From IMG/VR virus record IMGVR_UViG_2693429713_000009: a stretch of DNA of 64,000 bases. The stretch is one strand, 5' to 3'. Made by a program: the position numbers and the translations under genes. This document shows positions 8,671-59,992 of this stretch, in pieces; the first letter of the stretch is position 1; the number at the start of each line of letters is the position of its first letter. The notes beneath the pieces were generated by a model. That model ran no database searches. It saw nothing but the letters and a program-made list of their open reading frames with translations, and was not told the origin of the DNA. The stretch is from a virus. Its lineage: Duplodnaviria; Heunggongvirae; Uroviricota; Caudoviricetes.

Positions 8671-8688
8671 TTGCCTTGTTAAGTTAAA

Positions 8689-8697
8689 TTTCTAACA
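8689..8697. promoter_or_regulatory. C1-type operator-like motif TTTCTAACA
   Basis: Member of recurring TGTTAGAAAA/TTTTCTAACA family; followed by AGTGTA-N6-TACACT dyad and a cluster of three GATC sites (8721-8750) upstream of RepL-like gene. Confidence 0.45.
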
Positions 8698-9887: not shown

Positions 9888-9917
9888 TGTTAGAAAATTA
9901 ATTTGATGTTTCTAAAT
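9888..9917. promoter_or_regulatory. paired operator-like motifs TGTTAGAAAA-N11-TTTCTAAAT
   Basis: Inverted pair of the recurring motif upstream of the icd/antirepressor unit. Confidence 0.5.
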
Positions 9918-11893: not shown

Positions 11894-12044
11894 ATTTTTC
11901 TCCCGGTCATGGGTTAATAAGTAGGCAAACTATGGGGAGTATGTGATTTTGACGGTAGTATCGTCCCCCTGAAAATAACATTCTCCATACCCTCTCAACC
12001 GTACCGCATAGCGGAATTTTTTACGGTTTAGAGGGGGAAATCCT

Positions 12045-19751: not shown

Positions 19752-20246
19752 TTGTTGTTATTATTTCGCATATTTACTATCAATGGGTGTGTTAGAAAAA
19801 TAGCGCGAAAGAGAAGGCGTCGCAGTGAATATTCTGAAACATCCCCACATGCCGCAGCTCTTAGAGAACTGGAGAAAAATCCAGATCTAATCAAAAGGAA
19901 CCATGAGCATTACGAGCAGGTTCGCGTCCTGGACTGGTTGTATCGCAATATGCGTTATGTGTATGAGCATACTCACGCCACTCCAAACGGTGGCCTGCGA
20001 GGCATAAGGACGGCAATAAAAATGGTGGCAGAGGGCCAAAAGAAGGGATATCCCGATCTTTCTATAGACCTTGCTTGTGGGGGATACCACGGAATGCGCA
20101 TTGAGATGAAACATGGGAGAAATCGCCTGACTCCCGAACAACTCGTCTGGATGACCCGCCTCACTGAAGCCGGTTACTACTGCTTTGAGGCGCGCAGTGC
20201 CGCTGAAGCCATAAAAGCTATCACGGAGTATGTTTGTCTTGATTAA
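19752..20246 (+). CDS. VRR-NUC domain nuclease
   Basis: 164 aa; GYPDL and E-x-K signature; start uncertain (TTG in track, operator-like motif at 19790-19799 lies inside predicted N-terminus). Confidence 0.5.
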   Translation: MLLLFRIFTINGCVRKIARKRRRRSEYSETSPHAAALRELEKNPDLIKRNHEHYEQVRVLDWLYRNMRYVYEHTHATPNGGLRGIRTAIKMVAEGQKKGYPDLSIDLACGGYHGMRIEMKHGRNRLTPEQLVWMTRLTEAGYYCFEARSAAEAIKAITEYVCLD

Positions 20247-20832: not shown

Positions 20833-20842
20833 TGTTAGAAAA
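20833..20842. promoter_or_regulatory. operator-like motif TGTTAGAAAA
   Basis: Upstream of 407-aa gene. Confidence 0.45.
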
Positions 20843-20855
20843 CTAATTTAACAAA

Positions 20856-22081: not shown

Positions 22082-22091
22082 TGTTAGAAAT
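22082..22091. promoter_or_regulatory. operator-like motif TGTTAGAAAT
   Basis: At start of the non-coding RNA locus. Confidence 0.4.
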
Positions 22092-22237
22092 CTAAAATCA
22101 CAATTCGAATGTATTGATTGTGAAGGTAACTTAACATAGAATTTTCCTTGCTGGTGGGCGGTACCCACGTTTCGCTTGCTGGGCTTGATAGTCACTTATT
22201 GGTTATTGTTCACCCACCAGCATTTAACAAATTAAAG

Positions 22238-22247
22238 TGTTAGAAAA
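22238..22247. promoter_or_regulatory. operator-like motif TGTTAGAAAA
   Basis: Second site upstream of the tRNA/hairpin locus. Confidence 0.4.
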
Positions 22248-22588
22248 GTATAGTAACGCAAGAGCACGCTTTGGCACCGTGCAGGCCAAAGTTCAGTAGG
22301 TTTAGTGCGGAAAGTGGTTTCAGAGAGAGCACTTTGCGAAGTAAACGACAATACATGTTGAGCCACGGAAGGTCTTTTTAAGGTGTTCATTGATGATGGT
22401 CCGGCAGAGAGTAACGGTACATGCTGCATCTAATCATCAATGCACATCTTCAACATTAAGGAGGCATAGGGATTTTTGTGGCGGTTACCTTTTGCCCTGA
22501 GTCTCCTTAATGTTGCAGTAATGCACCTATGCGGATGTGGCCTTGCATTGTGTCTTGAAAGAATGGGGTAAGGCCGGGGATATCCCCA

Positions 22589-23314: not shown

Positions 23315-23391
23315 GGTGGTGTAGCTCAGTAGGATAGAGCAGCAGCCTTCTAAGCTGTCGGTCGGTGGTTCGAATCCACCCACCATCGCCA
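23315..23391 (+). tRNA. tRNA-Arg (anticodon TCT)
   Basis: Cloverleaf by eye: acceptor GGTGGTG/CACCATC, D arm GCTC..GAGC, anticodon loop CTTCTAA, T arm GGTGG-TTCGAAT-CCACC, encoded CCA. Confidence 0.75.
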
Positions 23392-23396
23392 ATTTA

Positions 23397-23483
23397 GGGG
23401 AGTTAGTCCGTAGGGGTAGCGGGGTAGACTGTAAATCTACTGTCATTGCGACTCGGATGGTTCGACTCCATCACTCCCCACCA
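23397..23483 (+). tRNA. tRNA-Tyr (anticodon GTA), long variable arm
   Basis: Acceptor GGGGAGT/ACTCCCC, anticodon stem-loop GTAGA-CTGTAAA-TCTAC, variable arm TGTCATTGCGACTCG, T arm GATGG-TTCGACT-CCATC, CCA. Confidence 0.65.
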
Positions 23484-23487
23484 AATT

Positions 23488-23563
23488 GCCGGTTTTGCTC
23501 AGTTGGTAGAGCGCCTGCCTTGTAAGCAGGATGTCAGCGGTTCGAGTCCGTTAACCGGCACCA
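23488..23563 (+). tRNA. tRNA-Thr (anticodon TGT)
   Basis: Acceptor GCCGGTT/AACCGGC, D arm GCTCAGTTGGTAGAGC, anticodon loop CTTGTAA, T loop TTCGAGT, CCA. Confidence 0.8.
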
Positions 23564-23564
23564 A

Positions 23565-23673
23565 CACAACAGGTAAGGGTATTTTGCGACGTCGGAGATC
23601 GCCGAGCTTGGCAGAGGGTTCGAATCCCTACGAAGTACCCTTACCGTTGTGATGAATGCGCAGGCTGATGCGC
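23565..23673 (+). repeat. long-stem hairpin repeat unit A (tRNA trailer element)
   Basis: CACAAC(A)GGTAAGGGTA pairs with TACCCTTACCGTTGTG; encloses T-arm-like AGGG-TTCGAAT-CCCT; followed by GATGAATGC and GCGCA-GGCTGA-TGCGC hairpin. Confidence 0.6.
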
Positions 23674-23753
23674 GAAAGACATTGCAGCTATTGCGGAAAA
23701 GAGCTGTCCGGCGGGGCAATTAAACGCCCGTGAGAGTCTGAAATAACCGCAAG

Positions 23754-23778
23754 CCGGAGATCAGCACCGGTCATCACA
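23754..23778 (+). other. conserved leader motif CCGGAGATCAGCACCGGTCATCACA
   Basis: One of three near-identical 25-nt copies preceding tRNA or trailer elements. Confidence 0.45.
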
Positions 23779-23856
23779 ACACAACAGGTAAGGGCATTCT
23801 CCTTATGGGGCTTGGCTTAAATGCATCGAGTGCTCTTACCGTTGTGATGAAGTGCA
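23775..23856 (+). repeat. long-stem hairpin repeat unit B
   Basis: ACAACAGGTAAGGGCATTC pairs with GAGTGCTCTTACCGTTGTG, then GATGAAGTGC tail. Confidence 0.55.
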
Positions 23857-23984
23857 GCTCTTAGAAGCAACCAGAAGATAAGCATCTGGCTTCACAACAT
23901 AAACCGCAGGAACGACCAATAAACGGTAGTCCGTATGGAGAACACCCCGTTGAGGAAGAGGCCTGGCCGGAACCGTAACCGGCA

Positions 23985-24101
23985 CTACAACGTTGAGAAC
24001 ACTGGCGTAACGGGGTCATATCCCAATCTATGAATAAATGTTGCGTTGCCGCGTGACAACCAGTGTTCTCAACATTGTGGTGAATGCACAGGCTGATGTG
24101 C
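23985..24101 (+). repeat. long-stem hairpin repeat unit C
   Basis: CTACAACGTTGAGAACACTGG pairs with CCAGTGTTCTCAACATTGTGG; stem sequence differs from unit A but flanks ACAAC and GTGGTGAATGC plus GCACA-GGCTGA-TGTGC hairpin are conserved; preceded by a tRNA-Thr-like 3' remnant. Confidence 0.55.
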
Positions 24102-24148
24102 CGCAACTACAGTAGTGCGCGCTTTGCGGGGCTTGCTACAACCCTGTG

Positions 24149-24173
24149 TCGGAGTTCAGCACCGACCATCACA
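24149..24173 (+). other. conserved leader motif TCGGAGTTCAGCACCGACCATCACA
   Basis: Second copy of 25-nt leader. Confidence 0.45.
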
Positions 24174-24260
24174 GTTTGATTCTCTGGCATGAGCATAACG
24201 CTGAAATAAGTCCAGTCTGGTGCGGTCTGATCACCCGCCGTTAGCTCCACGAAACGGAGC

Positions 24261-24371
24261 GCACAACAGGTAAGAGTATTTGTAGAGTTCGACTCTCTAC
24301 CGTGGGCTTTTTCCCGCGATGCGAGCCATAAATGCTCTTTCCGTTGTGGTGAATGCGCGTTGCTGGCGCGC
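24261..24371 (+). repeat. long-stem hairpin repeat unit D
   Basis: GCACAACAGGTAAGAGTATTT pairs with AAATGCTCTTTCCGTTGTGG; encloses T-arm-like GTAGAG-TTCGACT-CTCTAC; GTGGTGAATGC plus GCGCG hairpin. Confidence 0.55.
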
Positions 24372-24470
24372 AAGTCCGCCCTATGGCAACGAGGCGGTGT
24401 AGTAAATATCGATGCCTCAGTCATCAAGCGTACTGACCGGCCTTATGGGCTATGAAAAAAAGAGGCGCAG

Positions 24471-24494
24471 TCGGCGATCAGCACCGACCATCAC
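24471..24494 (+). other. conserved leader motif TCGGCGATCAGCACCGACCATCACA
   Basis: Third copy, directly upstream of tRNA-Ser-like element. Confidence 0.45.
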
Positions 24495-24501
24495 AATCAC
24501 T

Positions 24502-24588
24502 GGAGAGTAGGGAGCATGGTGCTCAAGCGGCCTTGAAAACCGTCCCATTGCGCAAGCGATGATGGTTCGATTCCATTACTCTCCGCCA
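24502..24588 (+). tRNA. tRNA-Ser-like (anticodon TGA) element, possibly degenerate
   Basis: Acceptor GGAGAGT/ACTCTCC plus G-CCA, anticodon loop CTTGAAA as in bacterial tRNA-Ser(UGA), T arm GATGG-TTCGATT-CCATT, long variable region; D arm and anticodon stem imperfect. Confidence 0.4.
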
Positions 24589-24720
24589 GTGCAACGTTAA
24601 GAGTATTTGGCTAATTAAGCGAATGCCGGAAGCAGAACCGGATCACCAAATGCGTACAGGCGTCATCGCCGCCCAGCCAGCCAAGTGCTCTTACCATTGC
24701 GGTGAATGCGGCTAAGCGCA
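24589..24720 (+). repeat. long-stem hairpin repeat unit E
   Basis: CAACGTTAAGAGTATTTGGCT pairs with AGCCAAGTGCTCTTACCATTGCGG; GTGAATGC plus TGCG-GCTAAG-CGCA hairpin. Confidence 0.5.
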
Positions 24721-24796
24721 CGCGGAACAGTTAAAACAATTTTCCTTAATAGTTAAGTCAAACATCCCGGCGTTAATTGTTAACTGGTTAACGTCA

Positions 24797-24811
24797 CCTG
24801 GAGGCACCAGG
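24797..24811 (+). repeat. CCTGG-AGGCA-CCAGG hairpin (GGAGGCACC family)
   Basis: Same loop as 22589 and 25605 copies with compensatory stem changes. Confidence 0.5.
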
Positions 24812-25211
24812 CACCGCAATCTAATAAAGTTTCAAGCAATGGAGTTTTTGTTGTCAGACTTCAGATATAGATGGTTGTGGAAGGAGAGCCTGTGCATAGT
24901 GCAGTTATTTCTTCCGCTATTTGTCTGCTTTTTCATGCTTCCTGAGCTGAAATACGCAATTTCAGACACTTTAAGCACTATCGTTACTTTTGTGTTTTAT
25001 CTTTACTTTGATTACTTATTGAGCACTAAAATCAATGAATTATCCGAGGAAATGCAAGGTGGCTGTAAGTGATGAATTTTTGGGCGTTTGCCGATAAGAA
25101 CCCTGGTTGGACATTTTTATTTTTGCTGGTGGTTGCATATGGGGTCGAGCAAGCGGCAAAAGCCTTACGCGGTTCTGGCAAAAAGCGTAAGCGGAATTAA
25201 CAGTAATCTGG

Positions 25212-25287
25212 CCCTTTAGCTCAGTGGTTAGAGCAGGCGACTCATAATCGCACGGTCACCGGTTCAAATCCGGTAGGGGCCACCATA
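25212..25287 (+). tRNA. tRNA-Ile2 (anticodon CAT, lysidine type)
   Basis: Near-identical by recall to E. coli ileX: GGCCCTTTAGCTCAGTGGTTAGAGCAGGCGACTCATAATCGC...TTCAAATCC...GGGGCCACCA. Confidence 0.75.
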
Positions 25288-26707: not shown

Positions 26708-26727
26708 CGTTAGGTGTTTAATATTAA

Positions 26728-26737
26728 TTTTCTAATA
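26728..26737. promoter_or_regulatory. operator-like motif TTTTCTAATA overlapping TATAAT
   Basis: Variant of recurring motif fused to a -10-like hexamer upstream of Lpa-like gene. Confidence 0.45.
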
Positions 26738-31142: not shown

Positions 31143-31160
31143 TATTCCTACTCGATTTAG

Positions 31161-31170
31161 TTTTCTAACA
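31161..31170. promoter_or_regulatory. operator-like motif TTTTCTAACA in repressor promoter
   Basis: 19 nt upstream of repressor start codon. Confidence 0.5.
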
Positions 31171-31536: not shown

Positions 31537-32565
31537 ATGAGTGAATTAATTATCTCTGGCAGTTCCGGTGGTTTTCTGCGCAACATTGGCAAAGAGTACC
31601 AGGAAGCCGCAGAAAACTTTATGCGGTTCATGAATGACCAGGGGGCTTATGCGCCGAATACTCTGCGCGACCTCCGTTTGGTGTTTCATTCCTGGGCGCG
31701 CTGGTGTCACGCTCGCCAGCTTGCCTGGTTTCCGATCTCACCAGAAATGGCCCGCGAGTATTTTCTTCAGCTGCATGATGCCGATCTGGCTTCGACCACC
31801 ATTGATAAGCACTACGCCATGCTGAACATGCTGCTTTCGCATTGTGGCCTTCCGCCACTTTCGGATGATAAAAGTGTTTCTCTGGCTATGCGGCGCATCC
31901 GGCGCGAAGCGGCAACTGAAAAAGGCGAACGAACAGGCCAGGCTATACCGCTGCGGTGGGACGATCTGAAACTGCTCGACGTCCTGTTGTCCAGGTCAGA
32001 ACGGCTGGTGGACCTGCGCAACCGGGCTTTTCTCTTTGTTGCATACAATACGCTGATGCGTATGTCGGAAATATCGCGTATTCGTGTAGGTGATCTGGAC
32101 CAAACAGGTGACACTGTCACGCTACATATTTCACACACGAAGACAATAACGACCGCCGCCGGGCTTGATAAGGTGCTTTCCCGTCGCACTACCGCTGTGC
32201 TGAATGACTGGCTGGATGTTTCCGGGCTTCGCGAACACCCTGACGCAGTGCTGTTCCCGCCGATACACCGTAGCAATAAGGCCAGGATCACGACAACGCC
32301 ACTTACTGCACCTGCAATGGAGAAAATATTCAGCGACGCCTGGGTGTTGCTGAATAAAAGAGATGCTACGCCAAACAAAGGAAGATACCGGACGTGGACC
32401 GGGCATAGTGCACGCGTCGGGGCCGCTATTGATATGGCTGAAAAGCAGGTGTCTATGGTGGAGATCATGCAGGAAGGAACCTGGAAGAAACCGGAAACAC
32501 TTATGCGGTATCTCCGCCGTGGCGGCGTGTCTGTGGGGGCTAATAGCCGCCTGATGGATTCGTAA
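31537..32565 (+). CDS. cre: Cre-like tyrosine recombinase
   Basis: 342 aa; SWARWCHARQLAWFP and C-terminal GHSARVGAA closely parallel P1 Cre. Confidence 0.9.
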   Translation: MSELIISGSSGGFLRNIGKEYQEAAENFMRFMNDQGAYAPNTLRDLRLVFHSWARWCHARQLAWFPISPEMAREYFLQLHDADLASTTIDKHYAMLNMLLSHCGLPPLSDDKSVSLAMRRIRREAATEKGERTGQAIPLRWDDLKLLDVLLSRSERLVDLRNRAFLFVAYNTLMRMSEISRIRVGDLDQTGDTVTLHISHTKTITTAAGLDKVLSRRTTAVLNDWLDVSGLREHPDAVLFPPIHRSNKARITTTPLTAPAMEKIFSDAWVLLNKRDATPNKGRYRTWTGHSARVGAAIDMAEKQVSMVEIMQEGTWKKPETLMRYLRRGGVSVGANSRLMDS

Positions 32566-32572
32566 ATTAAAT

Positions 32573-32581
32573 TTCTAACAC
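32573..32581. promoter_or_regulatory. operator-like motif TTTCTAACA
   Basis: Between cre and downstream gene. Confidence 0.4.
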
Positions 32582-45184: not shown

Positions 45185-45213
45185 TGTTAGAAAACTAAAA
45201 TCAATGTTCTAAC
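45185..45213. promoter_or_regulatory. paired operator-like motifs TGTTAGAAAA-N11-GTTCTAAC
   Basis: Intergenic between phosphatase gene and downstream gene. Confidence 0.45.
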
Positions 45214-49852: not shown

Positions 49853-50431
49853 ATGCAGAAACAGAGCTATTGGGAGAAACAGAGGCAAAAAGCCATGCAA
49901 AAATTGGCTGACCCGGCCTGGCGAGAGGAACAAAGGGCAAAGCGCCTTCAACAAGCTCAACGCCAGCAGCAGCGAGCGAGAGAAAAAGCCGCATCGCCTG
50001 AATATCGGCAAAAAAAAATTGAAAAAGCAAAGCAATATGACCAGCGGAGAAAAGAGAAAGCTGTATCCGCTCCGTCCAAAAAAACACGCACGTCACGCGG
50101 CCTGAAGGGCAGATCACTCACAGCCGATGAACGCCGGATACAGACCGCTATCGGTACTCTCCCCTGCATTGCCTGCCATATTCACGGGAAACATAGCCCA
50201 GTGGTATCCCTGCACCATATCTTCGGGAGAACGGCAGAGAACGCACATAAATATGTCCTCCCTTTGTGTAAATGGCACCACCAGTACGCAGCGCCAGCCG
50301 AGGTCCGAGAACAATATCCCTGGCTGGTCCCTGTTCATGCTGATGGAAAAATAGGCGGAAAAGCAGATTTCATACGGCACAATGCCGATGAAATGGCGTT
50401 GTATCAGATGGCGATTGAATTGATAAATTAG
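49853..50431 (+). CDS. ref: Ref HNH endonuclease
   Basis: 192 aa; LPCIACHIHG...SLHHI.GRT...LPLCKWHHQYAAPAEVREQYPWLVPVHADG matches P1 Ref as recalled. Confidence 0.8.
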   Translation: MQKQSYWEKQRQKAMQKLADPAWREEQRAKRLQQAQRQQQRAREKAASPEYRQKKIEKAKQYDQRRKEKAVSAPSKKTRTSRGLKGRSLTADERRIQTAIGTLPCIACHIHGKHSPVVSLHHIFGRTAENAHKYVLPLCKWHHQYAAPAEVREQYPWLVPVHADGKIGGKADFIRHNADEMALYQMAIELIN

Positions 50432-50440
50432 TTTTCTAAC
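50431..50440. promoter_or_regulatory. operator-like motif TTTTCTAACA
   Basis: Immediately after ref stop. Confidence 0.4.
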
Positions 50441-50763
50441 ATTTTAAGTTGAATTGTGAATTTCCCCGATGTACATTCACTACCGATTGGTACACCGGTC
50501 AACTTTTTGAGACAAACTGTTTAGTTTTTCGTATTATTGCCGCCGCCATACCTATGGCGGTGCAATATAGGTGGCTGAAAAGCCCCCGTTGACTCACGGT
50601 GTTCCAGCCTTTATTGCGCCGCCACCAGACCGTGGAACAGTCGATGGCGGCTCCGAAAGCAAGGAGTCACTACACTATGAACAACTACAGTCTTTTCCCA
50701 TCACTCGTCGTCCACCACTCACGCGATAATCTGCATTCTTTACTCGCGCCGGGGGTGTCAAAA

Positions 50764-50937
50764 TGACTGTTCGCTACCTCAACTTTCAAATCAAGAACAT
50801 TACTGGCGGTTGCTATGACTGGTTTGTCACTCTCGGAAAAGAAGTGATTACTGGTAAACTGGATGAAGTGAAAGCTAAAGCAATGGCCTACGCCTGCAAG
50901 CAAACCAGGAAGAAATCAACCAAGCATAAAGCCTGAA
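50764..50937 (+). CDS. small hypothetical protein (not in ORF track)
   Basis: 57 aa ORF with GGGGGTG upstream. Confidence 0.3.
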
Positions 50938-50998
50938 GGTGTAGGGTTACCCGGGGTCGTCGGGGCTTTAACTACTAAATAACCGGATTCTCCGCACG

Positions 50999-51310
50999 AT
51001 GAAGAAAATAGATTTCACTTACTCTGCTGCCACAATCCAGCGACGTTTCAGTCTCATAAGGGAAGTAGAACTATCAAAAAACTGTTATCAAATTCTACTG
51101 GATGAAGAGTTTTCGCTGATGATAATGGCAGAAAAATTGGCTATGCCGAATGACCGGCACAAAGTCATTGCCAGCCTGGATCTGGTGACAAATAGATACA
51201 GGGAAACAGAGGAACTACGTGAAGCGGGAGCAATGCGTGACCTGATGGATAATTCCGTTCCCCGTCGTTATCGTACGGGGAACGACATCTCCGTGATTAA
51301 AGGGGCTTAA
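50999..51310 (+). CDS. hypothetical protein
   Basis: 103 aa. Confidence 0.4.
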   Translation: MKKIDFTYSAATIQRRFSLIREVELSKNCYQILLDEEFSLMIMAEKLAMPNDRHKVIASLDLVTNRYRETEELREAGAMRDLMDNSVPRRYRTGNDISVIKGA

Positions 51311-51699
51311 AGCTCACCTGTGCGCTGTTTTTCAAGCACAGATTTAACATTTGGCGCTTTCCCTTTAAAAGAATGGAAAGTGCCACATTTTTCTGTTTTA
51401 ACCTCGCGCAGAGCTTCTCCATCGGCGTTCTGCCATTGATGGGATAATGTCATATCACCGCGAGAAGGAACATCCAGCGAGTACAGCGTATAAGTTCCCC
51501 CCATCTCCGCATACTCCTGGAACACATAGCTCATTACGTCAGATTCAGTTTTTCGGTGTGCGTTATCAACCTTATTCCCATTCAGAAATATGGCATCCGG
51601 ATAGATTTTTATATCAAACCGACCGCACTTAACTTGTAAATTTCCGGCGCTCGCGATCAAAGGGAAAGACGCCAGTAAAGCAATAGCCAATCTTTTCAA
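51307..51699 (-). CDS. exported protein
   Basis: 130 aa; signal peptide MKRLAIALLASFPLIASA. Confidence 0.5.
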   Translation of the reverse strand: MKRLAIALLASFPLIASAGNLQVKCGRFDIKIYPDAIFLNGNKVDNAHRKTESDVMSYVFQEYAEMGGTYTLYSLDVPSRGDMTLSHQWQNADGEALREVKTEKCGTFHSFKGKAPNVKSVLEKQRTGEL

Positions 51700-51719
51700 T
51701 TCTGCCTCCGCTGCGTAAC

Positions 51720-52343
51720 TTATTGCCCGTATTTTTTACACCATTGCTCTGCCATTTGTTTGGCTAAAGGCCCGGCTACTGCACTGTATTCTGCTGTTTT
51801 ACTTTGCACACATGAAGCAGATGGTTTTTTATTTCGCTGCTCGGTTAGTTTGCGCTCATAAGCCATCATGCTATCGAACCCGGCAATATCACTTTGGCGA
51901 AGCATTCCCTTTTTAACCAAAAATTGCTGCCCCTCGGGCACCAATGCAAGCATAAAAAGTGGTTGCAATAACTCACCTAATCCTTGCTGGCGATACACTT
52001 CGAATTGCTGCCATCCCTGACTTAATCTGGAAAGAGTATCTTTGGTTGAGTAACCTGTTTTTGTTATAGCTTTGTCCGTCAGATATGCTGTATATGCAAA
52101 AACGCAAAAGTCAGTTTTACCAATAAACTGAGTTCCAACAGGCCGTAATGGAATGCCCTCCCTCTTGCAAAAGTCCATAATGGCCGCTTGTGAATGATCC
52201 CCACCAGCGTTATTCATAACCTGCTGCCCTGCCCTGAATTGTGCAGGTAACGCAGTTGCATTGGCAGTATTAGCAGATACGCATCCCAACATAGCCGCGA
52301 GCGCGGCCCCTAAAACCCTTAACTTCACTACACCATCCTTCAT
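51720..52343 (-). CDS. putative lipoprotein
   Basis: 207 aa; signal peptide with lipobox-like MLGC. Confidence 0.5.
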   Translation of the reverse strand: MKDGVVKLRVLGAALAAMLGCVSANTANATALPAQFRAGQQVMNNAGGDHSQAAIMDFCKREGIPLRPVGTQFIGKTDFCVFAYTAYLTDKAITKTGYSTKDTLSRLSQGWQQFEVYRQQGLGELLQPLFMLALVPEGQQFLVKKGMLRQSDIAGFDSMMAYERKLTEQRNKKPSASCVQSKTAEYSAVAGPLAKQMAEQWCKKYGQ

Positions 52344-52438
52344 GTAAACAAAATGAAGTTTTATGTTATAAAAACAATTAACTACATCAACATGATTTAG
52401 GCCAAATTTCGGTCAAAAAATAAAATCCACAAAAAGTG

Positions 52439-52584
52439 GTTGACACTATTTTGGAAATCACAAACTGCACATAATCCATCGCGCTAACGGCTCCCGTTGA
52501 AGGTTCTTTTGACGATTAACTTTCAGCCGAAGCGCGGTAGGGAGTCATAACGCCAAAGCAGGCCGCCATGTGCGGCCTTTTTTT
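52439..52584 (+). ncRNA. candidate leader or small RNA (promoter-like TTGACA to terminator)
   Basis: TTGACA at about 52439, then about 110 nt ending in AGGCCGC-CATGT-GCGGCCT plus TTTTTTT directly upstream of the 52612 gene. Confidence 0.3.
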
Positions 52585-52611
52585 GTATCCGTCATCCGTG
52601 GAGGAAGGACA

Positions 52612-53265
52612 ATGGAAAAGATCGCAATATTCAGCCTGACCACCAGCAAGCCTCAAATGCTCACTGCAATACTGAAAGACGGTGCTCTCATTATTAACGA
52701 AGTAAAACCCCTTCCCGCGTCAGCATTGGAGCAAAAGCAAAAAATTCCTCCAGCTATAGCAGCCCTGCGGAAAAGCAAATTCAAGGTTCTAGTAGACGAA
52801 ATTACGCCAACGATCTCCGCTGGCACCGGAGCAAGCCAGGTGACTCTCAAGACCCGTCATGCCGATGGTAGAGCAGCAATCATCGTCGGGATGGAAAGAT
52901 ACAGAGAGTTAAAACTCCAGAAACTATTATCCCTGCCGCAAAATAACAAAGGTGCTTTCGAAATCCCCGACTCTATCGTTGATACCGAATACAACGGTAA
53001 CGGAGAAGAAGTCTACAGGGTGAACTGGCAGGATATCAGGCCGGAGCATATTCTGATGATCCTGTGTTGCTACGCGACCGTATACCACAACGTTGCCAGT
53101 GCAGATTACGTAGAGCAGATGACCGGTACAGTCGAGAAAGAGCAAAAAACAGGCATACTCGCTTCGTTCCTGTCCATTATTGGGCATGAAAAAGTTAAAG
53201 CAGGCACCTCCCAGCCAAAGTCACTGGCTGGGAAAGAAGTTGATGAAGATACCGTGATACTTTGA
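52612..53265 (+). CDS. hypothetical protein
   Basis: 217 aa from ATG with GGAGGAAGG upstream. Confidence 0.45.
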   Translation: MEKIAIFSLTTSKPQMLTAILKDGALIINEVKPLPASALEQKQKIPPAIAALRKSKFKVLVDEITPTISAGTGASQVTLKTRHADGRAAIIVGMERYRELKLQKLLSLPQNNKGAFEIPDSIVDTEYNGNGEEVYRVNWQDIRPEHILMILCCYATVYHNVASADYVEQMTGTVEKEQKTGILASFLSIIGHEKVKAGTSQPKSLAGKEVDEDTVIL

Positions 53266-53400
53266 TCACATTAGTAGCTTTGTTAACTCCCTCAATACCA
53301 GGTAGAAGAGTAACAAAAATATTGACGCGAGTATTTGAGTGGTCAATGAAGCGTTCATAAACAGATCAATTAGCATTAATAATTCGAAGATAACATCCAT
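53266..53400 (-). CDS. small hydrophobic peptide (candidate membrane toxin-like)
   Basis: 44 aa MDVIFELLMLIDLFMNASLTTQILASIFLLLFYLVLRELTKLLM with GGAG upstream; hairpins in its 5' region. Confidence 0.25.
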   Translation of the reverse strand: MDVIFELLMLIDLFMNASLTTQILASIFLLLFYLVLRELTKLLM

Positions 53401-53593
53401 GTCATTCACTCCGTTTAATTTTTAATCTAATGCCAGCAAATGAAGCTGGCCCCCGCATAAAGATTAATGAAAGTCACTTGTCACCAGTGAGGGGATTTAT
53501 GAACCACATCCCCCTGAACTGGTGGCCTGTCTGTTTCTCGCATTTCACACCCTGCATACAGTTTCCCCCAGGTTATGACTGAGAGGCTTTGTT

Positions 53594-53923
53594 ATGGGCT
53601 ATAGCAGACTCGACGATAGGTACATTGAAGACGATATTTTTCGTGCGCTGTTTCACCAGGAAATGATTAAGCGGGTATCGGAGTATCACTCTGATAATTT
53701 CCAGTACACGATAAAGATTGATGAAGTATATCGTTCAGACCTTGCAGCCTACAGGGCGTATGGCAATGCAGATTTGCGCTGGGTATTCCGGGTGCTGGTG
53801 GGCCATGAGTCAGAAATGGAAGAAATGCCCGCCGGGACCACGTTAACTCTTCCTGATGTGGCATGGCTGAGGAACAAGATCCGTGATTACGCGAGCGCGG
53901 AACCGGAGATAGAAAATGCCTGA
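53594..53923 (+). CDS. hypothetical protein
   Basis: 109 aa, overlaps start of SWIM gene. Confidence 0.4.
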   Translation: MGYSRLDDRYIEDDIFRALFHQEMIKRVSEYHSDNFQYTIKIDEVYRSDLAAYRAYGNADLRWVFRVLVGHESEMEEMPAGTTLTLPDVAWLRNKIRDYASAEPEIENA

Positions 53924-55112
53924 TTTCCTGAAAAACCAGGACGGGCGCTATATCACTGACGGCCTGTCCTCTAAGGACTTCACGCGTTTATTCGACCTTA
54001 TCAGGAAAGAACAAACCCGTAAGCGCCGACAAGCTCACCGGACGCTGACGCCAGGTAGACTGAGGAACAAATCCGCCGAAGATATTCTCAAGTTAGGGAA
54101 GAAAAAAGGCGGCACGTTCTTCACGCGAGACGACCTGAAAGGTTTCGAAAAGCTACGGAGTAAAACACGCGAAAAATATGACAGCAAGACGGCTGGCATC
54201 ACATACGCCCAGCTGGTGGCATCCAGCCAAGCAATCGATATTAAGCGTGCAAATAACGCCGTGGATGACGGATCTGGTATCAAAAGAGCTACACCCGTAT
54301 CTCTTCGCCACAACGTGATTAATATCCGCGTAGAAGCATCGGATATATCCGTCCACCAGCACCATATCGTCCGGATACGCTTTGAAGAATGGGATCAGAT
54401 GGTCGATGACATCGCAGAAGACGATAAATCAGCCCTGAAAATCACTAAATCACTGTGCGCCGGGCGGGTGTCTTTCGATTGTGACTGTGGTCGTCATCAA
54501 TACTGGTATCGTTACATCGCTACTGCGGGTAACTTTGCCCTGGCCCCGCCAAAAGAATACGCCTATCCAAAAGTTCGTAACCCTAAGCTACAAGGCGTCG
54601 CCTGTAAACACGTGATCCACTCAATGACGCGGTTACAGTCCGCTAGTTGGCAAATGAGTATTGCTCGTGCGTTACAAAAGGCCGCAACGCAAATTGCATT
54701 TGGTGACGATCGCCGCCGTACAACCAAACACTTCTCAAAAGAAGACGAGAGGGAGTTTAATCGCAATCGCAACAGTAAAACAAACGTTGACGTTGCCAAG
54801 CGCGAATGGAGGCTCTATCAGAAGCGCCAGGCCGCTTTAAGCACAAAACTGGCAAAGGACAACGGCAAAATTGACAAGCTACGTGACCAATTGACCAAAG
54901 CCAGAAAGTTGTCAGACGCACAGAAAAAACGGGCGGCAGCAAAAGAAGCGGCCTTGCAACGTGAGAAACAGAAAAACAAGGAGCTTCAGCAACGCCTTGC
55001 CGATCAGTTCGCACTGAAGAAGCAGGCGTTCATTGATGCGCTTGTCATGGCAGGAACGTCACCTGAGCAAGCTGAAAAAATGTTTATGGAGTATGTGAAG
55101 AAAGGTTCTTAA
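53916..55112 (+). CDS. SWIM zinc-finger protein with basic coiled-coil tail
   Basis: 398 aa; CDCGRH...CKH pattern; Lys/Arg-rich helical C-terminus. Confidence 0.45.
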   Translation: MPDFLKNQDGRYITDGLSSKDFTRLFDLIRKEQTRKRRQAHRTLTPGRLRNKSAEDILKLGKKKGGTFFTRDDLKGFEKLRSKTREKYDSKTAGITYAQLVASSQAIDIKRANNAVDDGSGIKRATPVSLRHNVINIRVEASDISVHQHHIVRIRFEEWDQMVDDIAEDDKSALKITKSLCAGRVSFDCDCGRHQYWYRYIATAGNFALAPPKEYAYPKVRNPKLQGVACKHVIHSMTRLQSASWQMSIARALQKAATQIAFGDDRRRTTKHFSKEDEREFNRNRNSKTNVDVAKREWRLYQKRQAALSTKLAKDNGKIDKLRDQLTKARKLSDAQKKRAAAKEAALQREKQKNKELQQRLADQFALKKQAFIDALVMAGTSPEQAEKMFMEYVKKGS

Positions 55113-55121
55113 TTTACAACA

Positions 55122-55146
55122 AAGGCGGTTATCCCGCCTTTTATAT
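55122..55146. terminator. hairpin terminator
   Basis: AAGGCGG-TTATC-CCGCCTT then TTTT. Confidence 0.5.
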
Positions 55147-55883
55147 TACTTGTCCTTTGATGTCGATTGAGACTCATATATTGTCTCCACGTCATCTATT
55201 AATTTATTAATACCCCACAATCCAGTGTCTTTATAAAAATCACTTTCTTCAATTGCTTTTAATAAATCGGCAAAATCTTCTTTGGTGGAAATCCTTTTAT
55301 CTTTTGCTTTATATATATCAACAATTACTTTTATACCGTGATACAGAGCCACTCTGGCACTCTCAATCTCTCTCTTCTTTTCTTCGATTGTATTCAGTAT
55401 TTTTTGTTGACCTTCTATTTGTTCCTCTAATTTTAAAAGCTCTTCCTCTTTTTTCTTTAGGTTTCTCAGTAACGCCTTTACTCTTGCTTTCTCTTCTGAG
55501 TCAAATTCATGGTCAATGTATCTTATTTGCGCATAATTTCTACCAGTTAGTTTTGATATACGCATAGTAATATAAGGCATTACTATGGACGCAATAGTGC
55601 CATATATAAACGGCATCACAAAGTGAGCTAAAAACGGAGATACAATGAAGGTTCCAAAATAAGGGATTTGATATTTATCCCCTACCCATACTATAGACAG
55701 TGTTGTGTATATATCATATTTAGATTTAAACAAAATTAGTATTTCTTGCCAATTAACGACAAAAAATGAAACCACCACATATGCAAATAATTTATTAAAT
55801 AATTTATCTTTTATGGCTTCATCCATTGTGCCCTTGATTGAGTCAATTGTAGATGTGTTTTCTGTTGATGAATTTTTGCTCAT
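55146..55883 (-). CDS. AT-rich membrane protein with cytoplasmic coiled coil
   Basis: About 245 aa; GC content by eye roughly one third, far below flanks; multiple TM segments then Lys/Glu-rich coiled coil. Confidence 0.5.
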   Translation of the reverse strand: MSKNSSTENTSTIDSIKGTMDEAIKDKLFNKLFAYVVVSFFVVNWQEILILFKSKYDIYTTLSIVWVGDKYQIPYFGTFIVSPFLAHFVMPFIYGTIASIVMPYITMRISKLTGRNYAQIRYIDHEFDSEEKARVKALLRNLKKKEEELLKLEEQIEGQQKILNTIEEKKREIESARVALYHGIKVIVDIYKAKDKRISTKEDFADLLKAIEESDFYKDTGLWGINKLIDDVETIYESQSTSKDK

Positions 55884-55945
55884 ACAAGCTATCAAACCTT
55901 CTAATTTTTATTTTAGATAAAAAGCGGTCCTCCAGACCGCCAAAC

Positions 55946-56305
55946 TTAAACACCAACCAGACTTTCCAGTGGAATACCAAACTGGGCATGTAAACGACGA
56001 ATCATAGGTAACGTCAAATTTCGTGTCCCATTAAGCACTTCGTAAACACGGTTTGACTTACCAATTGCCGGTTCCAGATCCTTCACGGTCAGCCCTTGCT
56101 GTTCCATACGGAATTTAATGGCCTCAATAGGTGATGGTGGCTCAATTGGGTAATGTTTTTTCTCGTACTCCTCAATGAGAAGACACATAACCTCAAAGAA
56201 ATCGCCTTCCGGTGTGTTCATTTCCGGTTCATTATCGAACATCGGTTCGACCGCACGCAGTGCGGCCTCATAATCTTGTTCTGTACGGATAGGTTTAATG
56301 TTCAT
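55946..56305 (-). CDS. higA: HigA-like antitoxin (HTH)
   Basis: 119 aa with C-terminal HTH; downstream of toxin. Confidence 0.65.
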   Translation of the reverse strand: MNIKPIRTEQDYEAALRAVEPMFDNEPEMNTPEGDFFEVMCLLIEEYEKKHYPIEPPSPIEAIKFRMEQQGLTVKDLEPAIGKSNRVYEVLNGTRNLTLPMIRRLHAQFGIPLESLVGV

Positions 56306-56308
56306 GAT

Positions 56309-56611
56309 TTACTCCAGTTCTATTGTATCCGCTTCAATGGCATCGTATTCCTTATGTGTTCCAATAAACTTAACGAACATCCATCCTCGCTGATAAGCAA
56401 TTGCGACAATTAACCTGTAATCATTTCCCTTAATATTGAACACCACGCGCCTGTTTTTAAGGATGCTGGCTGTCCGGTACTGTTCTTTGATCTCAGCCGG
56501 ATTTTTCCAGTCAGCCTTTGTTGCTTCATCAACCCATGCCTTTAATGGCTGTTCTGCATCGGGATTCTTCGCCCAGAAATCCCTTAGTGTTTTTACCGAA
56601 ATTATTTTCAT
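56309..56611 (-). CDS. higB: HigB-like toxin (RelE/ParE superfamily)
   Basis: 100 aa from MKIISVKTLRDFW; THKEYD motif; toxin precedes antitoxin. Confidence 0.65.
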   Translation of the reverse strand: MKIISVKTLRDFWAKNPDAEQPLKAWVDEATKADWKNPAEIKEQYRTASILKNRRVVFNIKGNDYRLIVAIAYQRGWMFVKFIGTHKEYDAIEADTIELE

Positions 56612-56638
56612 CACAGATTCCTTCTCTCTGAAAGTATA

Positions 56639-56688
56639 GTAGTCCCAATATGGGACAATGTAAAGCACTTTAGTCCCATGCTGGGATA
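56639..56688. promoter_or_regulatory. higBA operator-like dyads
   Basis: Two TAGTCCCA-N4-TGGGA palindromes upstream of higB. Confidence 0.5.
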
Positions 56689-56756
56689 TGAATTGAAATC
56701 ACAATCTCCAGACAATGCACCCTCGATACCTGATAAATCGACCTTTGAGGATGCTT

Positions 56757-57548
56757 ATGGGCCGTTTTGACGAATGGTTTGCTGACGATGCAAACCTGGC
56801 AAGTAAGAAGTCAGAACATGACAGCACGCAGAGAGAAACGCCAGCGCCGATTGAAGCGAATGCAGGAGGCACGCCGGAACATGGCAATACCGGTTCGGAT
56901 TCATTCAGCATTCTGGAAGAGCAACCCGCCGCCAAAGCTGATAGCCATGATAATTTTGCTGATAGCAACGGTGGCCTTACTCCGGATGCTGGCGAATCAG
57001 ATATAGCCATACTTCCACCTTCCCTGGCTGGCAGAGAACCAACTCCACAGCTAAAAGCACGCTATAACGGGCATAAAGCCTTTAACGACCAAATCCGCGC
57101 AGACTGGATGCTGATTATTGAATCCAGCCCAGACGCGTTTCAGGCTCTCTTATATCGACCAGATGTTGGCACATATGGGGTAGTCAGCGACGAAACAGGA
57201 GAAGAGTCATTCACTGAACTGGATAACAACCAACGCGAACTGACTTACCAGGAACCTGAAATCGTTTATGTGCTGGATAACCCGGACGGGCGTGACTCTT
57301 TCCATGCGATTGACGCAGACGGTGAGCAGGATGGTTTAACCGATGATGTTCTGATTCTGCGTATTGCAGCAAATAACGTCCCCGTCGGATCAATTCTTGA
57401 ATGGAATGAAGAGATGGTAAACGGCGTAGCCCGCCGCTGGTGGTACGTGCACCGTATTTTTAGCTACGGCACACAGCATGTTGGTTCGCTTTACTACTGC
57501 ATACCTGCCAGAAATTTTGATACGACTCAAAACGGAGTGATCGAATGA
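56757..57548 (+). CDS. hypothetical protein, possible tail/baseplate module
   Basis: ATG at 56757 after GAGGATG; acidic N-terminal half. Confidence 0.4.
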   Translation: MGRFDEWFADDANLASKKSEHDSTQRETPAPIEANAGGTPEHGNTGSDSFSILEEQPAAKADSHDNFADSNGGLTPDAGESDIAILPPSLAGREPTPQLKARYNGHKAFNDQIRADWMLIIESSPDAFQALLYRPDVGTYGVVSDETGEESFTELDNNQRELTYQEPEIVYVLDNPDGRDSFHAIDADGEQDGLTDDVLILRIAANNVPVGSILEWNEEMVNGVARRWWYVHRIFSYGTQHVGSLYYCIPARNFDTTQNGVIE

Positions 57549-58312
57549 CTTCAAATAAAACCCTCCTGGCGCGAACAGGTGAATGGCAAACATCACGCAC
57601 AGGAAAATTCCAGACCACGGGCTTTGAAAACGTGGATAACGCGTTTGCTACGCTAATCAGCAATATCTTTTCTGATATCTTACTGGTGGCCCCCGCGCCG
57701 GAAGAAAAACGCTTTGCGTCATTCCTGAATCGTCCACCAGCAGAGCGTGTCTATGTGGCCCGTTTTGACAATGCGATCGAGTTTCTTAAAGCAGTTCGTC
57801 GCGCAAATGCCGGGCAAGGGAGAAAACCTGAAAACCAGAACATTAACCGGGATGCTCTCCCCCTAGTCAATATCTCACGCACTATGGATATCAATTATAT
57901 CAACGATGATCAGCAGATTGACCGCAAAAAAGTAGCCAGTTTTTGCGAACCAGATACCGGAATGCCTTTAGCAGAACTGGAATACACCCAGGCCATTCTG
58001 ACGTATGACGTTACGTTAATGGCAACTGATAAAGCGACCATGAGTCTGATGTGTAATTCGCTGGGCGCACGGCTTCGCCTGATGACAGGTACACAATTTG
58101 AAGCAACCACTCACCTTGTTCGTGTCCCGGTCCCGCTGATTTGCTCGATACAGGATGCCAAAGAAGTCGGCTTTACGGATGTTTCAGCACCAATTGGAGA
58201 AGAGCGTATTTATGCCACACAAGCGCCGATAAGTGTGATTGCAGACGTGATCACAGCATGGGAGTTGGACGCAAAACGTATTATTACCGAAACCTCGATA
58301 TCTATGGGGTGA
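57545..58312 (+). CDS. hypothetical protein, possible baseplate module
   Basis: 255 aa, overlapping starts. Confidence 0.4.
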   Translation: MTSNKTLLARTGEWQTSRTGKFQTTGFENVDNAFATLISNIFSDILLVAPAPEEKRFASFLNRPPAERVYVARFDNAIEFLKAVRRANAGQGRKPENQNINRDALPLVNISRTMDINYINDDQQIDRKKVASFCEPDTGMPLAELEYTQAILTYDVTLMATDKATMSLMCNSLGARLRLMTGTQFEATTHLVRVPVPLICSIQDAKEVGFTDVSAPIGEERIYATQAPISVIADVITAWELDAKRIITETSISMG

Positions 58313-58315
58313 TAA

Positions 58316-59296
58316 GTGGCCCAGGAGTTACAACAATATTTTCTACAGTCAGTGCTCATTAACGATAACAAAGTGCCACGAGACTGGATTTTTACCGCAG
58401 TATATGTAGAAAAAACCAGCCTCAAAGCCCCTTTGCTAAAACTGGAAATTCATGACGCTACCGGCACCGTAATTGATGACTGGAAAGCCAAATACGGTGC
58501 ATCGCTGGTGGCTGAAATGGGCGATCCAAACGGTAATGCAGGCACTTTTAAAACAGATTTCTTTGTTACGTCTGCAATGCTGGCTGGTGATGTTGTTACC
58601 GTTATTGCTGTCAGTGAAGACGTGCGTAGGTTTAAGATCCCCTCCCCGCGCACAAATTTACATACCAACAAAACACCAGACGCTATATTCAAGGCATATT
58701 CCGGCAAGCTTAAAATTACCAGCAGCGTGCTAAAACGCGCAGTTACATATCATCTGAATGCCGGTGACAAACCGTCAAAAATGCTTTCGGAGATAGCGCG
58801 AGACAAAGGTGCATTATGTTGGGTATGCCGGGGGGAATTTAACTTTTACACCCTGGCTGATCTGATGAAGCAAACGCCATCATTTACCTACGAGGGGAAT
58901 AACCCTAAAGCAGAATACACTTTGTCCAAAATGCGCCTACTCCAACAGGAACATGCGACAACAGCAAAGAATCAATATCGTTTTGTTGGGTATTCCATGA
59001 CCGATGGCTACGTCGAATATGGCGATAGCTCACTCCCAGTGCGTTATATATCCGACTCTGATATGGAAACTCTTCGCAATATGCAGCTGTCTCTCGTCCC
59101 CAAAATGGATATAGAAGTCGCAGGCAATCCTGATATAAAACCGGGGATGGTGATAGAGATTATCGTATACCGCTATGACCAGGAAAACCGCATTGATGAA
59201 TCAATGCCCCGTAAGCTAATAGTAAAAAATGTTGCGCACTTTGAAGACCGCGTAGGCTACACAACACGAATGATATTGGGAGTGCCGAACAAATGA
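58316..59296 (+). CDS. hypothetical protein, possible baseplate module
   Basis: 326 aa. Confidence 0.4.
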   Translation: MAQELQQYFLQSVLINDNKVPRDWIFTAVYVEKTSLKAPLLKLEIHDATGTVIDDWKAKYGASLVAEMGDPNGNAGTFKTDFFVTSAMLAGDVVTVIAVSEDVRRFKIPSPRTNLHTNKTPDAIFKAYSGKLKITSSVLKRAVTYHLNAGDKPSKMLSEIARDKGALCWVCRGEFNFYTLADLMKQTPSFTYEGNNPKAEYTLSKMRLLQQEHATTAKNQYRFVGYSMTDGYVEYGDSSLPVRYISDSDMETLRNMQLSLVPKMDIEVAGNPDIKPGMVIEIIVYRYDQENRIDESMPRKLIVKNVAHFEDRVGYTTRMILGVPNK

Positions 59297-59946
59297 AGCG
59301 TAGAGCGCAAATTGTTGGAACTGTGCACCCGGCAGGGCTTATGCGTGCTCAAGTCCGTGTTTTACCTGACTGGAATGGCGTTCCTGATGACGATCTACCC
59401 TGGGCGGAATACCTGTTACCCATCGGTAACGCTTTTGTACCCACAGTCAAAGGTGACCTGGTCTGGGTAGAGTTTCCTTATTTAGATGTTAACGGTCGAA
59501 TAGACACCAGACGCCCAATGATAGTTGGTGCCGCTCAGGATGCACCGGGAGGAATTCCAAACGTTGCACCAGAAGCATCTGGCAAAGGCAACGGCTGGAC
59601 GCCGCCGGAAGTAGATGGAGCACCTCCCCGCCCCCAAATCTCAGCAACGAAAGACTTCGTTATTCACCGCAACAATATTCTTGAAGTACGAACTGCTGGT
59701 GGCGGCTATGAAATTGCCAATACGGCAGCAGGCTCAAGGATTGGCATGAATGAGTCCGGGCAGATATATATCATTGGTCCGGCTGATGTAATCGTGAATG
59801 CAGGAGGGAGTGTTAACGTCAAATCAGCCAACAACATCAATGTTAAAGGGGAAAATATTGCTGTCACCGCTAACGGAGACATAGCTTTCAAGGCAGGAGG
59901 AACCTTTCAGGCCACTGCTAGCAACTTCGATTTCAAGAAAGGATAG
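59293..59946 (+). CDS. possible baseplate spike / gpV-like protein
   Basis: 217 aa; N-terminal OB-like region then Gly/Asn-rich repetitive beta-strand-like tail. Confidence 0.4.
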   Translation: MKRRAQIVGTVHPAGLMRAQVRVLPDWNGVPDDDLPWAEYLLPIGNAFVPTVKGDLVWVEFPYLDVNGRIDTRRPMIVGAAQDAPGGIPNVAPEASGKGNGWTPPEVDGAPPRPQISATKDFVIHRNNILEVRTAGGGYEIANTAAGSRIGMNESGQIYIIGPADVIVNAGGSVNVKSANNINVKGENIAVTANGDIAFKAGGTFQATASNFDFKKG

Positions 59947-59962
59947 AAAATGCACCCATTTA

Positions 59963-59992
59963 TGTTAGATAATTAACATGCATTTTCTAACA
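59963..59992. promoter_or_regulatory. paired operator-like motifs TGTTAGATAA-N10-TTTTCTAACA
   Basis: Inverted pair upstream of rdgC. Confidence 0.5.

Follow-up and report, generated by a model that had tools for sequence, protein, structure and literature searches.

The DNA immediately upstream of mat, the maturation control gene of this prophage, contains what is, on comparative evidence, a real and conserved RNA element that has escaped annotation, and not an artefact. The element is a leader of about 105 nt that is predicted to fold into a three-way junction and to end in an intrinsic terminator just before the ribosome-binding site of mat. Our preferred interpretation, to which we assign a probability of about 0.5, is that it acts as a factor-dependent or leaky transcription attenuator, which would limit mat expression and release the ~105-nt RNA. 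An initial annotation had proposed an attenuator or riboswitch-type leader, or a small RNA, and this class of explanation appears right in view of the conservation of the element, the covariation in its helices and its strand-specific G-U pairs. The element defines a new RNA motif, suitable for Rfam.

The mat locus and its promoter

The window (the whole stretch of DNA analysed, 64,000 nt) corresponds to a D6-like plasmid prophage of the P1 family, with 96.5% identity to phage D6, and is matched by 121 plasmids of Escherichia, Salmonella, Shigella and Enterobacter. The gene directly 3' of the leader encodes a protein with 99.5% identity to D6 Mat and about 33–34% identity, over 95% of its length, to P1 Mat, and is thus a mat orthologue. 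Its 5' neighbour is a divergent simB-like gene (51720–52343), and genes 26, 25, 7, 24, 6 and 5 (baseplate and tail) lie downstream. The D6 record contains only CDS annotations at this locus. The features identified in the window, all on the + strand, are as follows.

52440–52445, +: TTGACA, -35-like hexamer with which the conserved module begins (sequence and comparison)
52458–52475, +: promoter core, box TCACAAACTGCA and -10 CATAAT (18 bp, TCACAAACTGCACATAAT; motif TCACAnnCTnCAnAnAnT)
about 52481–52585, +: leader RNA, ~105 nt (predicted start 6–8 nt past the -10; end at the T-run)
52481–83 (GCG) and 52485–86 (UA) with 52548–49 (UA) and 52551–53 (CGC), +: outer helix P0 (MFE fold)
52489–52546, +: three-way junction (hand-made structural alignment, pair counts)
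52489–95 with 52540–46, +: closing stem P1, GGCUCCC/GGGAGUC in the window
52498–505 with 52518–25, +: hairpin P2, with loop CUUUUGACGAUU at 52506–17
52527–29 with 52535–37, +: hairpin P3, holding GCGCGG, which is invariant in classes A–E
52560–52584, +: intrinsic terminator (stem 52560–66 with 52572–78, loop 52567–71, T-run 52578–84, preceded by an A-rich tract)
52600–52604, +: Shine-Dalgarno sequence GGAGG of mat, 7 nt before the ATG (sequence)
52612–53265, +: mat, maturation control protein, 217 aa

The initial annotation had placed a TTGACA hexamer at about 52439; the hexamer is present, its exact position being 52440–52445. By itself TTGACA is unremarkable (21 occurrences in the window, fewer than the 41.5 expected by chance), and the significance of the elements at this locus must therefore come from comparison. 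A scan with the sigma-70 consensus around 52440 yielded no promoter, and no -10 element was found 16–18 bp past TTGACA, because the nearest -10-like hexamer, CATAAT (52470–75), is separated from it by a 24-bp spacer. A canonical sigma-70 promoter with TTGACA as its -35 element is therefore improbable. CATAAT forms the 3' end of the core that begins with the box TCACAAACTGCA. No copies of the mat promoter were found with up to three mismatches, and the degenerate motif TCACAnnCTnCAnAnAnT was required to detect others; it matches the window 5 times where 0.29 matches are expected, a number reached in none of 100 shuffles. Two further copies are located 32–41 nt 5' of the starts of gene 26 and gene 7, and the same three sites (mat, gene 26 and gene 7) occur in phage D6. 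Given this enrichment and placement, the box and -10 at 52458–75 are very probably a real, phage-specific promoter core. The promoter-like element of the initial annotation is thus retained as a conserved phage-specific box with its -10, but apparently not as a standard sigma-70 promoter with TTGACA as -35.

The other copies of TCACAnnCTnCAnAnAnT map to 53545–53562 (+), 56699–56716 (+), 11929–11946 (-) and 55081–55098 (-), before gene 26, gene 7 and a minus-strand ORF of 161 aa, with one copy antisense inside gene 25. None was found in D6 before the capsid, sheath or tube genes. These extra copies suggest a small D6-specific class of promoters, distinct from the P1 late promoters. Among the genes with a TCACAnnCTnCAnAnAnT promoter, mat is the only one with the upstream TTGACA and a long structured leader with a terminator. 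The -22 box of the P1 late promoters (AAGTGACTT, 4 bp before the -10) is absent at 52440–75, and the consensus of six late promoters of P1 shows no enrichment across the window (7 matches against 6 expected); a P1-type Lpa box was therefore rejected as an element of the mat promoter here. No copy of the repressor-operator-like motif TGTTAGAAAAnTAATTT was found near the mat promoter, none of the 12 copies in the window falling within 50442–59962.

In two otherwise unrelated contexts, the homology of plasmids to the window starts exactly at TTGACA (base 52440), and the hexamer therefore marks where a mobile module begins, one that, on these comparisons, comprises promoter, leader, terminator and mat. 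TTGAC[ACG] is conserved 23–26 bp 5' of the -10 in classes A–E and 19 bp 5' of it in P1; the class F promoter has canonical sigma-70 spacing, and a class-A-like variant (L315) has near-canonical spacing. A leader and terminator were present 5' of mat in every enterobacterial Mat class examined (34–100% Mat identity to the window). The module is kept across Mat classes down to 35–42% identity, and at 34% (P1) only the architecture matches. In the one Vibrio relative, a plasmid with a Mat homologue, the element is absent. Genomes with the module have a single copy of it, invariably located before mat, and each RNA class always accompanies its own Mat class.

A loose sequence-pattern scan of IMG/VR returned mostly chance matches among the matches listed, and the strong model matches among the 80 loci listed by this pattern were all on contigs known to carry mat. 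In complete E. coli genomes, the D6-type leader was found in 100 of 5,426, always plasmid-borne, in single copy and usually without an annotated feature. Large IncF conjugative plasmids of Klebsiella (L005, Klebsiella pneumoniae pKPN361-2) carry ref, the leader, mat and genes 26 and 25 beside an ars operon; their Mat has 52.5% identity, and there are 129 Klebsiella records. On one metagenome contig (L110), the junction has been swapped for unrelated sequence, with the terminator and mat retained.

Structure, covariation and conservation of the leader RNA

We infer the ends of the leader transcript from the position of the -10 element and the T-run. A covariance model (R1) gave a single strong match in the 64-kb window, at 52478–52585 (59.9 bits). 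The leader has a folding energy of -39 kcal/mol (z = -2.1), and the P1 leader has a z value of -2.9. In each, when folded separately, a closing stem surrounds two hairpins, and a spacer leads from there to the terminator. An equivalent of P0, with 3–8 bp of differing sequence, is possible in every class, as read from the sequences by eye (for instance GCGCUA/UAGCGC for class A2, UUAACG/CGUUAA for class D). Among unpaired positions, conservation is seen in the P2 loop, in the GCGCGG at P3 and in an A-rich linker, the 3' part of which is able to pair with the extreme 5' end (P0). The conserved loop of P2 is CUUUUGAC, and in the P1 group CUUUUCAA.

Searches of Rfam with the window leader, at E values up to 10, returned a single match, to isrK (14.7 bits, E 8.9) at the terminator, and eight other leader loci matched no family at E up to 1. 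The reading frame through the leader contains in-frame stops in every class but P1. A leader peptide or a longer form of Mat was rejected on the basis of these stops outside P1 and of 1-nt indels in P1-like variants.

The comparative dataset consisted of 79, 80 and 80 mat loci from IMG/VR and metagenomes, plus contigs with more distant Mat proteins. The leader sequences fall into about ten classes that diverge strongly from one another, and the pairing of the closing stem is kept through double changes among them. In other classes, this stem reads GGUUCCC/GGGAGCC, GUUCCC/GGGAAC, GCGAACC/GGUUCGU, GGUUCUGG/CCAGAUACC or AGAUUCUUU/AAAGAAUCU, and in the P1 group GCCCGGUAC (partner GUACCGGGC), CCCGGUGC or CCCGGCGC, each with a matching partner. 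The G-U pairs are found on the + strand only, and the structure therefore belongs to the + strand RNA.

In a hand-made structural alignment of classes A–E, 96% of the cells were paired, against 84.8% in shuffles, with 9 pairs changed on both sides against 5.1 (a value reached in 2 of 500 shuffles) and a covariation of 0.336 against 0.128 (reached in none of 500), slid registers giving 0.02–0.07. The model-made alignment of 27 distinct sequences, six of them outside model building, gave 91% of cells paired against 79%, 17 pairs changed on both sides against 9.5 and a covariation of 0.257 against 0.113 (neither of the last two reached in 500 shuffles), with 0.04–0.10 in slid registers. Because each alignment was fitted to the structure, either by hand or by the model, the percentage of paired cells is inflated and the structure favoured; nevertheless, the slid registers used as controls and the independent sequences speak for a real covariation signal. 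Leader alignments obtained with MAFFT were out of structural register. The six independent loci outside model building scored 40–67 bits with the covariance model, and the class F leader scored 24 bits. The P1-group leader was not detected by the model built on classes A–E, and its relationship to the other leaders is therefore argued from position and architecture only.

Among 30 distinct contigs of class C, identity was 99.5% in the leader, 95% at mat codon positions 1+2 and 74.7% at position 3, with 76% in the promoter segment and 31% further upstream. The corresponding values for 45 distinct contigs of the P1 group were 99.5% in the leader, 92.9% at positions 1+2, 86.7% at position 3, 93.2% in the promoter segment and 83.2% further upstream. 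Judged by these identities, the leader is under purifying selection.

Termination and the expression of mat

The hairpin AGGCCGC-CATGT-GCGGCCT (52560–52578), with 7 pairs (6 of them G-C), a loop of 5 nt and a following T7, was the top-scoring terminator-like site in a 4-kb consensus scan. Its location agrees with the initial annotation, which had reported a hairpin plus T-run about 110 nt after the hexamer and about 30 nt before the ATG at 52612: 114 nt separate the hexamer from the start of the hairpin, and 27 nt lie between the end of the T-run and the start codon. Hairpin and T-run are kept in all classes with varying loops, helix 4 being paired in 98.9–100%. The U-tract of class C consists only of UUU followed by CGCCU, and termination may therefore be weak in this class. 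The hairpin cannot be the terminator of the upstream gene, since that gene is divergent, and on the minus strand the tail past the hairpin lacks a T-run. The terminator would act on transcripts that start at the module's own promoter, so that it either attenuates them or marks where a small RNA ends.

The riboswitch-type switch considered in the initial annotation was not supported. No conserved pairing competes with the terminator, the closing pair of which had a probability of 0.91–1.0 in every class in full-length ensembles, and the folding analysis that had been proposed for alternative terminator/antiterminator structures revealed no conserved antiterminator pairing across classes. When the RNAs were cut before the 3' arm of the terminator and folded, its 5' arm paired upstream in several classes, extensively in B–E; the upstream partners differ by class, and there are none in A2 and locus L168. 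By inspection, no complement to the 5' arm was found in A2, B, locus L313 and the P1 group.

If the leader is an attenuator, transcription would start near 52481 and most transcripts would stop at 52584, with release of the ~105-nt leader RNA. The mat gene, and in many relatives also genes 26 and 25, would be carried by read-through transcripts only, so that attenuation would keep Mat expression low or delayed. The absence of a conserved antiterminator suggests that read-through is probably due to leakiness or to a trans factor: its level might be set by the intrinsic leakiness of the terminator or by a factor that recognizes the conserved loops of the junction, such as a phage or host protein or a modified RNA polymerase, and is probably not set by ligand-driven refolding. 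As mat is reported to be essential in P1 (PMC10695390), substantial read-through must somehow take place, and that no mechanism for it emerged counts against an attenuator. The locus offers a testable system for how a phage passes a strong promoter-proximal terminator with no visible antiterminator.

The arrangement resembles the PR'-6S RNA-tR' region of lambda, in which a promoter heading late and morphogenesis genes is likewise followed by a short leader and a strong terminator before the first gene, so that expression requires read-through. Unlike in lambda, where Q acts as the antiterminator, the leader here is a conserved three-way junction, no Q homologue or Q-binding element is known, and late control in the relative P1 acts at initiation. 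Within classes, the near-total conservation of all 105 nt exceeds the need of a simple attenuator, and this hints at a function of the RNA itself.

A live, though less probable, alternative is that the ~105-nt terminated RNA is the functional product, either a trans-acting small RNA or an RNA that binds a protein, for which Mat is the attractive candidate. In type III toxin-antitoxin loci (ToxIN, AvcID), a promoter is followed by a non-coding RNA, a Rho-independent terminator and the protein gene; the order at mat is the same, and here too RNA and protein always co-occur, each RNA class with its Mat class. If the RNA holds Mat, this order would keep the RNA more abundant than the protein, as is the case in those loci. 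Consistent with a functional RNA, every leader position is extremely conserved within classes, above mat codon positions 1+2, the loop sequences are retained, and the RNA finishes in a terminator with a U-tail. In addition, Mat has a predicted terminase-nuclease-like fold, and free activity of such a nuclease-type protein could be harmful. However, the leader is a single structured RNA, present once per genome, with no tandem or internal repeat in its 105 nt (although not all type III antitoxins are repeated), and Mat, a protein with a phage morphogenesis function, matched no Pfam, NCBIfam or PADLOC model and hence no known toxin or defence family. In a search for trans targets of the exposed loops and linker, the window and the initial 50 kb of P1 yielded only chance-level 9–12-mers and no complementarity above chance.

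More speculative, and in our view improbable, is the proposal that the leader is a dedicated partner RNA, kept in excess by its own terminator, that binds and restrains Mat until DNA packaging or, alternatively, that the junction gives rise to a late-mode, terminator-resistant polymerase. The former would represent a type III TA-like RNA-protein pair serving the control of virion maturation, and the latter an RNA-based layer added to P1-family late control.

A related proposal is that the junction is a cis-acting RNA that modifies RNA polymerase, as put does, or recruits a phage factor, as in nut/N-like or Q-like systems. We regard this as quite unlikely, and give equally little weight to its corollary that transcripts from the mat promoter pass this and later terminators whereas other transcripts stop. 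The structured RNA lies right after a promoter and before a terminator, heading a late morphogenesis block, as might be expected for such an element, and if read-through is regulated the lack of a refolding switch calls for a mechanism directed at the polymerase or a factor. HK022 put is similar in that a structured RNA directly follows a promoter and precedes a terminator, with no refolding switch needed. However, put consists of two adjacent stem-loops without a closing helix and acts on early operons, a description that would set the leader apart from it. Moreover, the consensus scan showed no strong + strand terminators within 2 kb downstream, and to our knowledge no N- or Q-like protein has been described in the P1 family.

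It is highly unlikely that the junction is the aptamer of a small-molecule riboswitch with the terminator as its expression platform. Many riboswitches have a three-way junction with conserved nucleotides and a terminator after it, and the junction here is supported by covariation, but no conserved alternative pairing joins junction and terminator, which are separated by an A-rich spacer; no class matched an Rfam family, and control by a metabolite would make no obvious sense for a phage morphogenesis gene. That the features are unrelated, with a random TTGACA and a hairpin serving as the neighbour's terminator or as a bidirectional insulator, is hardly credible: the hexamer is unenriched and has no canonical -10 partner, but the divergent upstream gene cannot use a + strand terminator, the minus-strand tail is not a T-run, the module has been kept intact across many differing upstream contexts and covariation supports the helices.

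The mat region of phage P1 and other elements of the window

Few phages are as widely used or as well annotated as P1, and clinical Enterobacteriaceae commonly carry P1/D6-like phage-plasmids. Before mat, the P1 record (NC_005856) lists the C1 operator Omat, the sigma-70 promoter Pmat (-35 TTGACA, -10 CAGAAT) and, overlapping Pmat, the late promoter LPmat (-22 box AAGTGACTT). The C1-controlled sigma-70 promoter is reportedly turned into a late promoter by Lpa, and late control in P1 acts at initiation, through Lpa and SspA. About 100 nt past the P1 promoter, we found a hairpin (AGCCGCC-GCT-GGTGGCT) with a T-run, followed by GGGGG and then by ATG GAT AAG AAA, which aligns with the start of D6-type Mat. 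The two regions are alike in their position before the orthologous gene, in a TTGACA 5' of a phage-specific box and -10, in a three-way-junction leader of ~100 nt and in an intrinsic terminator just before a shared Shine-Dalgarno sequence and ATG. The core at 52458–75 of the window occupies the place of LPmat. However, the window has the box TCACAAACTGCA where P1 has AAGTGACTT, TTGACA and the -10 are 24 bp apart in the window rather than 19 bp, no operator-like motif lies beside the promoter in the window and the leader sequences cannot be aligned. Dual regulation of the P1 mat promoter was examined in experiments by Lehnherr et al. 2001 (reference 119 of PMC10695390). A leader and terminator before the reportedly essential mat gene would constitute an unrecognised regulatory layer on this "dual control".

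At mat, the P1 record lists neither a terminator nor an RNA feature, and the CDS starts at 2716, inside the leader, 37 codons 5' of the start common to the homologues (NC_005856 2716–2826; L002 1317–1427). This 5' extension covers the leader and the terminator, and in P1-like variants it is interrupted by stops or frameshifts, including 1-nt indels between the terminator and the ATG. The PHROG 1837 profile (212 positions) spans the short form of Mat end to end, and the Mat homologues have 217–220 aa. The extension is therefore probably wrong, since the frame is closed elsewhere, indels occur within it, and both the PHROG 1837 fit and the homologue lengths agree with the shorter protein; by implication, the reference annotation of P1 mat is ~37 codons too long.

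The C4 antisense RNA of P1/P7 (RF01695) comes from the same phage family and also has a long closing stem around two hairpins. It differs in being cut from a longer transcript and in pairing with a and b sites before icd/ant, and its Rfam model did not match the mat leader in the window scan. A C4-type RNA is present in the window at 50550–50629 (+), with a score of 40.2 bits that is below the gathering score of 45, and the sites before an icd-like ORF (start 50678) are a2, TGGAACA (50632–38), and b2, GGAGTCA (50663–69), the latter overlapping the Shine-Dalgarno sequence. This RNA and its sites are unannotated in D6 records. C4 RNA was rejected as a regulator of the leader, as full-length duplex energies were no better than those of shuffles. 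The only sequence that the leader has in common with the C4 system is the 7-mer GGAGTCA of site b2, at 52541–47 of the leader; it is part of the closing stem, and other classes do not retain it. Being buried and unconserved, it was treated as a coincidence, and the sharing is probably due to chance.

The 17-bp motif TGTTAGAAAAnTAATTT is repeated 12 times in the window, where 2.9 copies would be expected, and none of 100 shuffles reached this number. The copies are located at 8681–8697 (-), 9888–9904, 19790–19806, 20833–20849, 22082–22098, 22238–22254, 26721–26737 (-), 31154–31170 (-), 32564–32580 (-), 45185–45201, 50425–50441 (-) and 59963–59979. In D6, the motif often has an inverted partner, TCTAACA, ~14 bp away, and one copy overlaps the 3' end of ref, 5' of c4, where P1 has C1 operators (Omat/Oc4). 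The motif is probably the operator of a D6-type repressor; its interpretation as a late-promoter box was dropped, because the inverted partner and the position of the P1 operators favour an operator.

A perfect P1-type -22 box (AAGTGACTT), followed after 4 nt by TAATCT, is located at 53461–53479 (-), between mat and gene 26, and faces a small hydrophobic ORF (53266–53409, minus strand), antisense to the 3' end of mat. Finally, five tRNA genes (Arg-TCT, Tyr, Thr, Ser and Met) are clustered at 23315–25285 (+).
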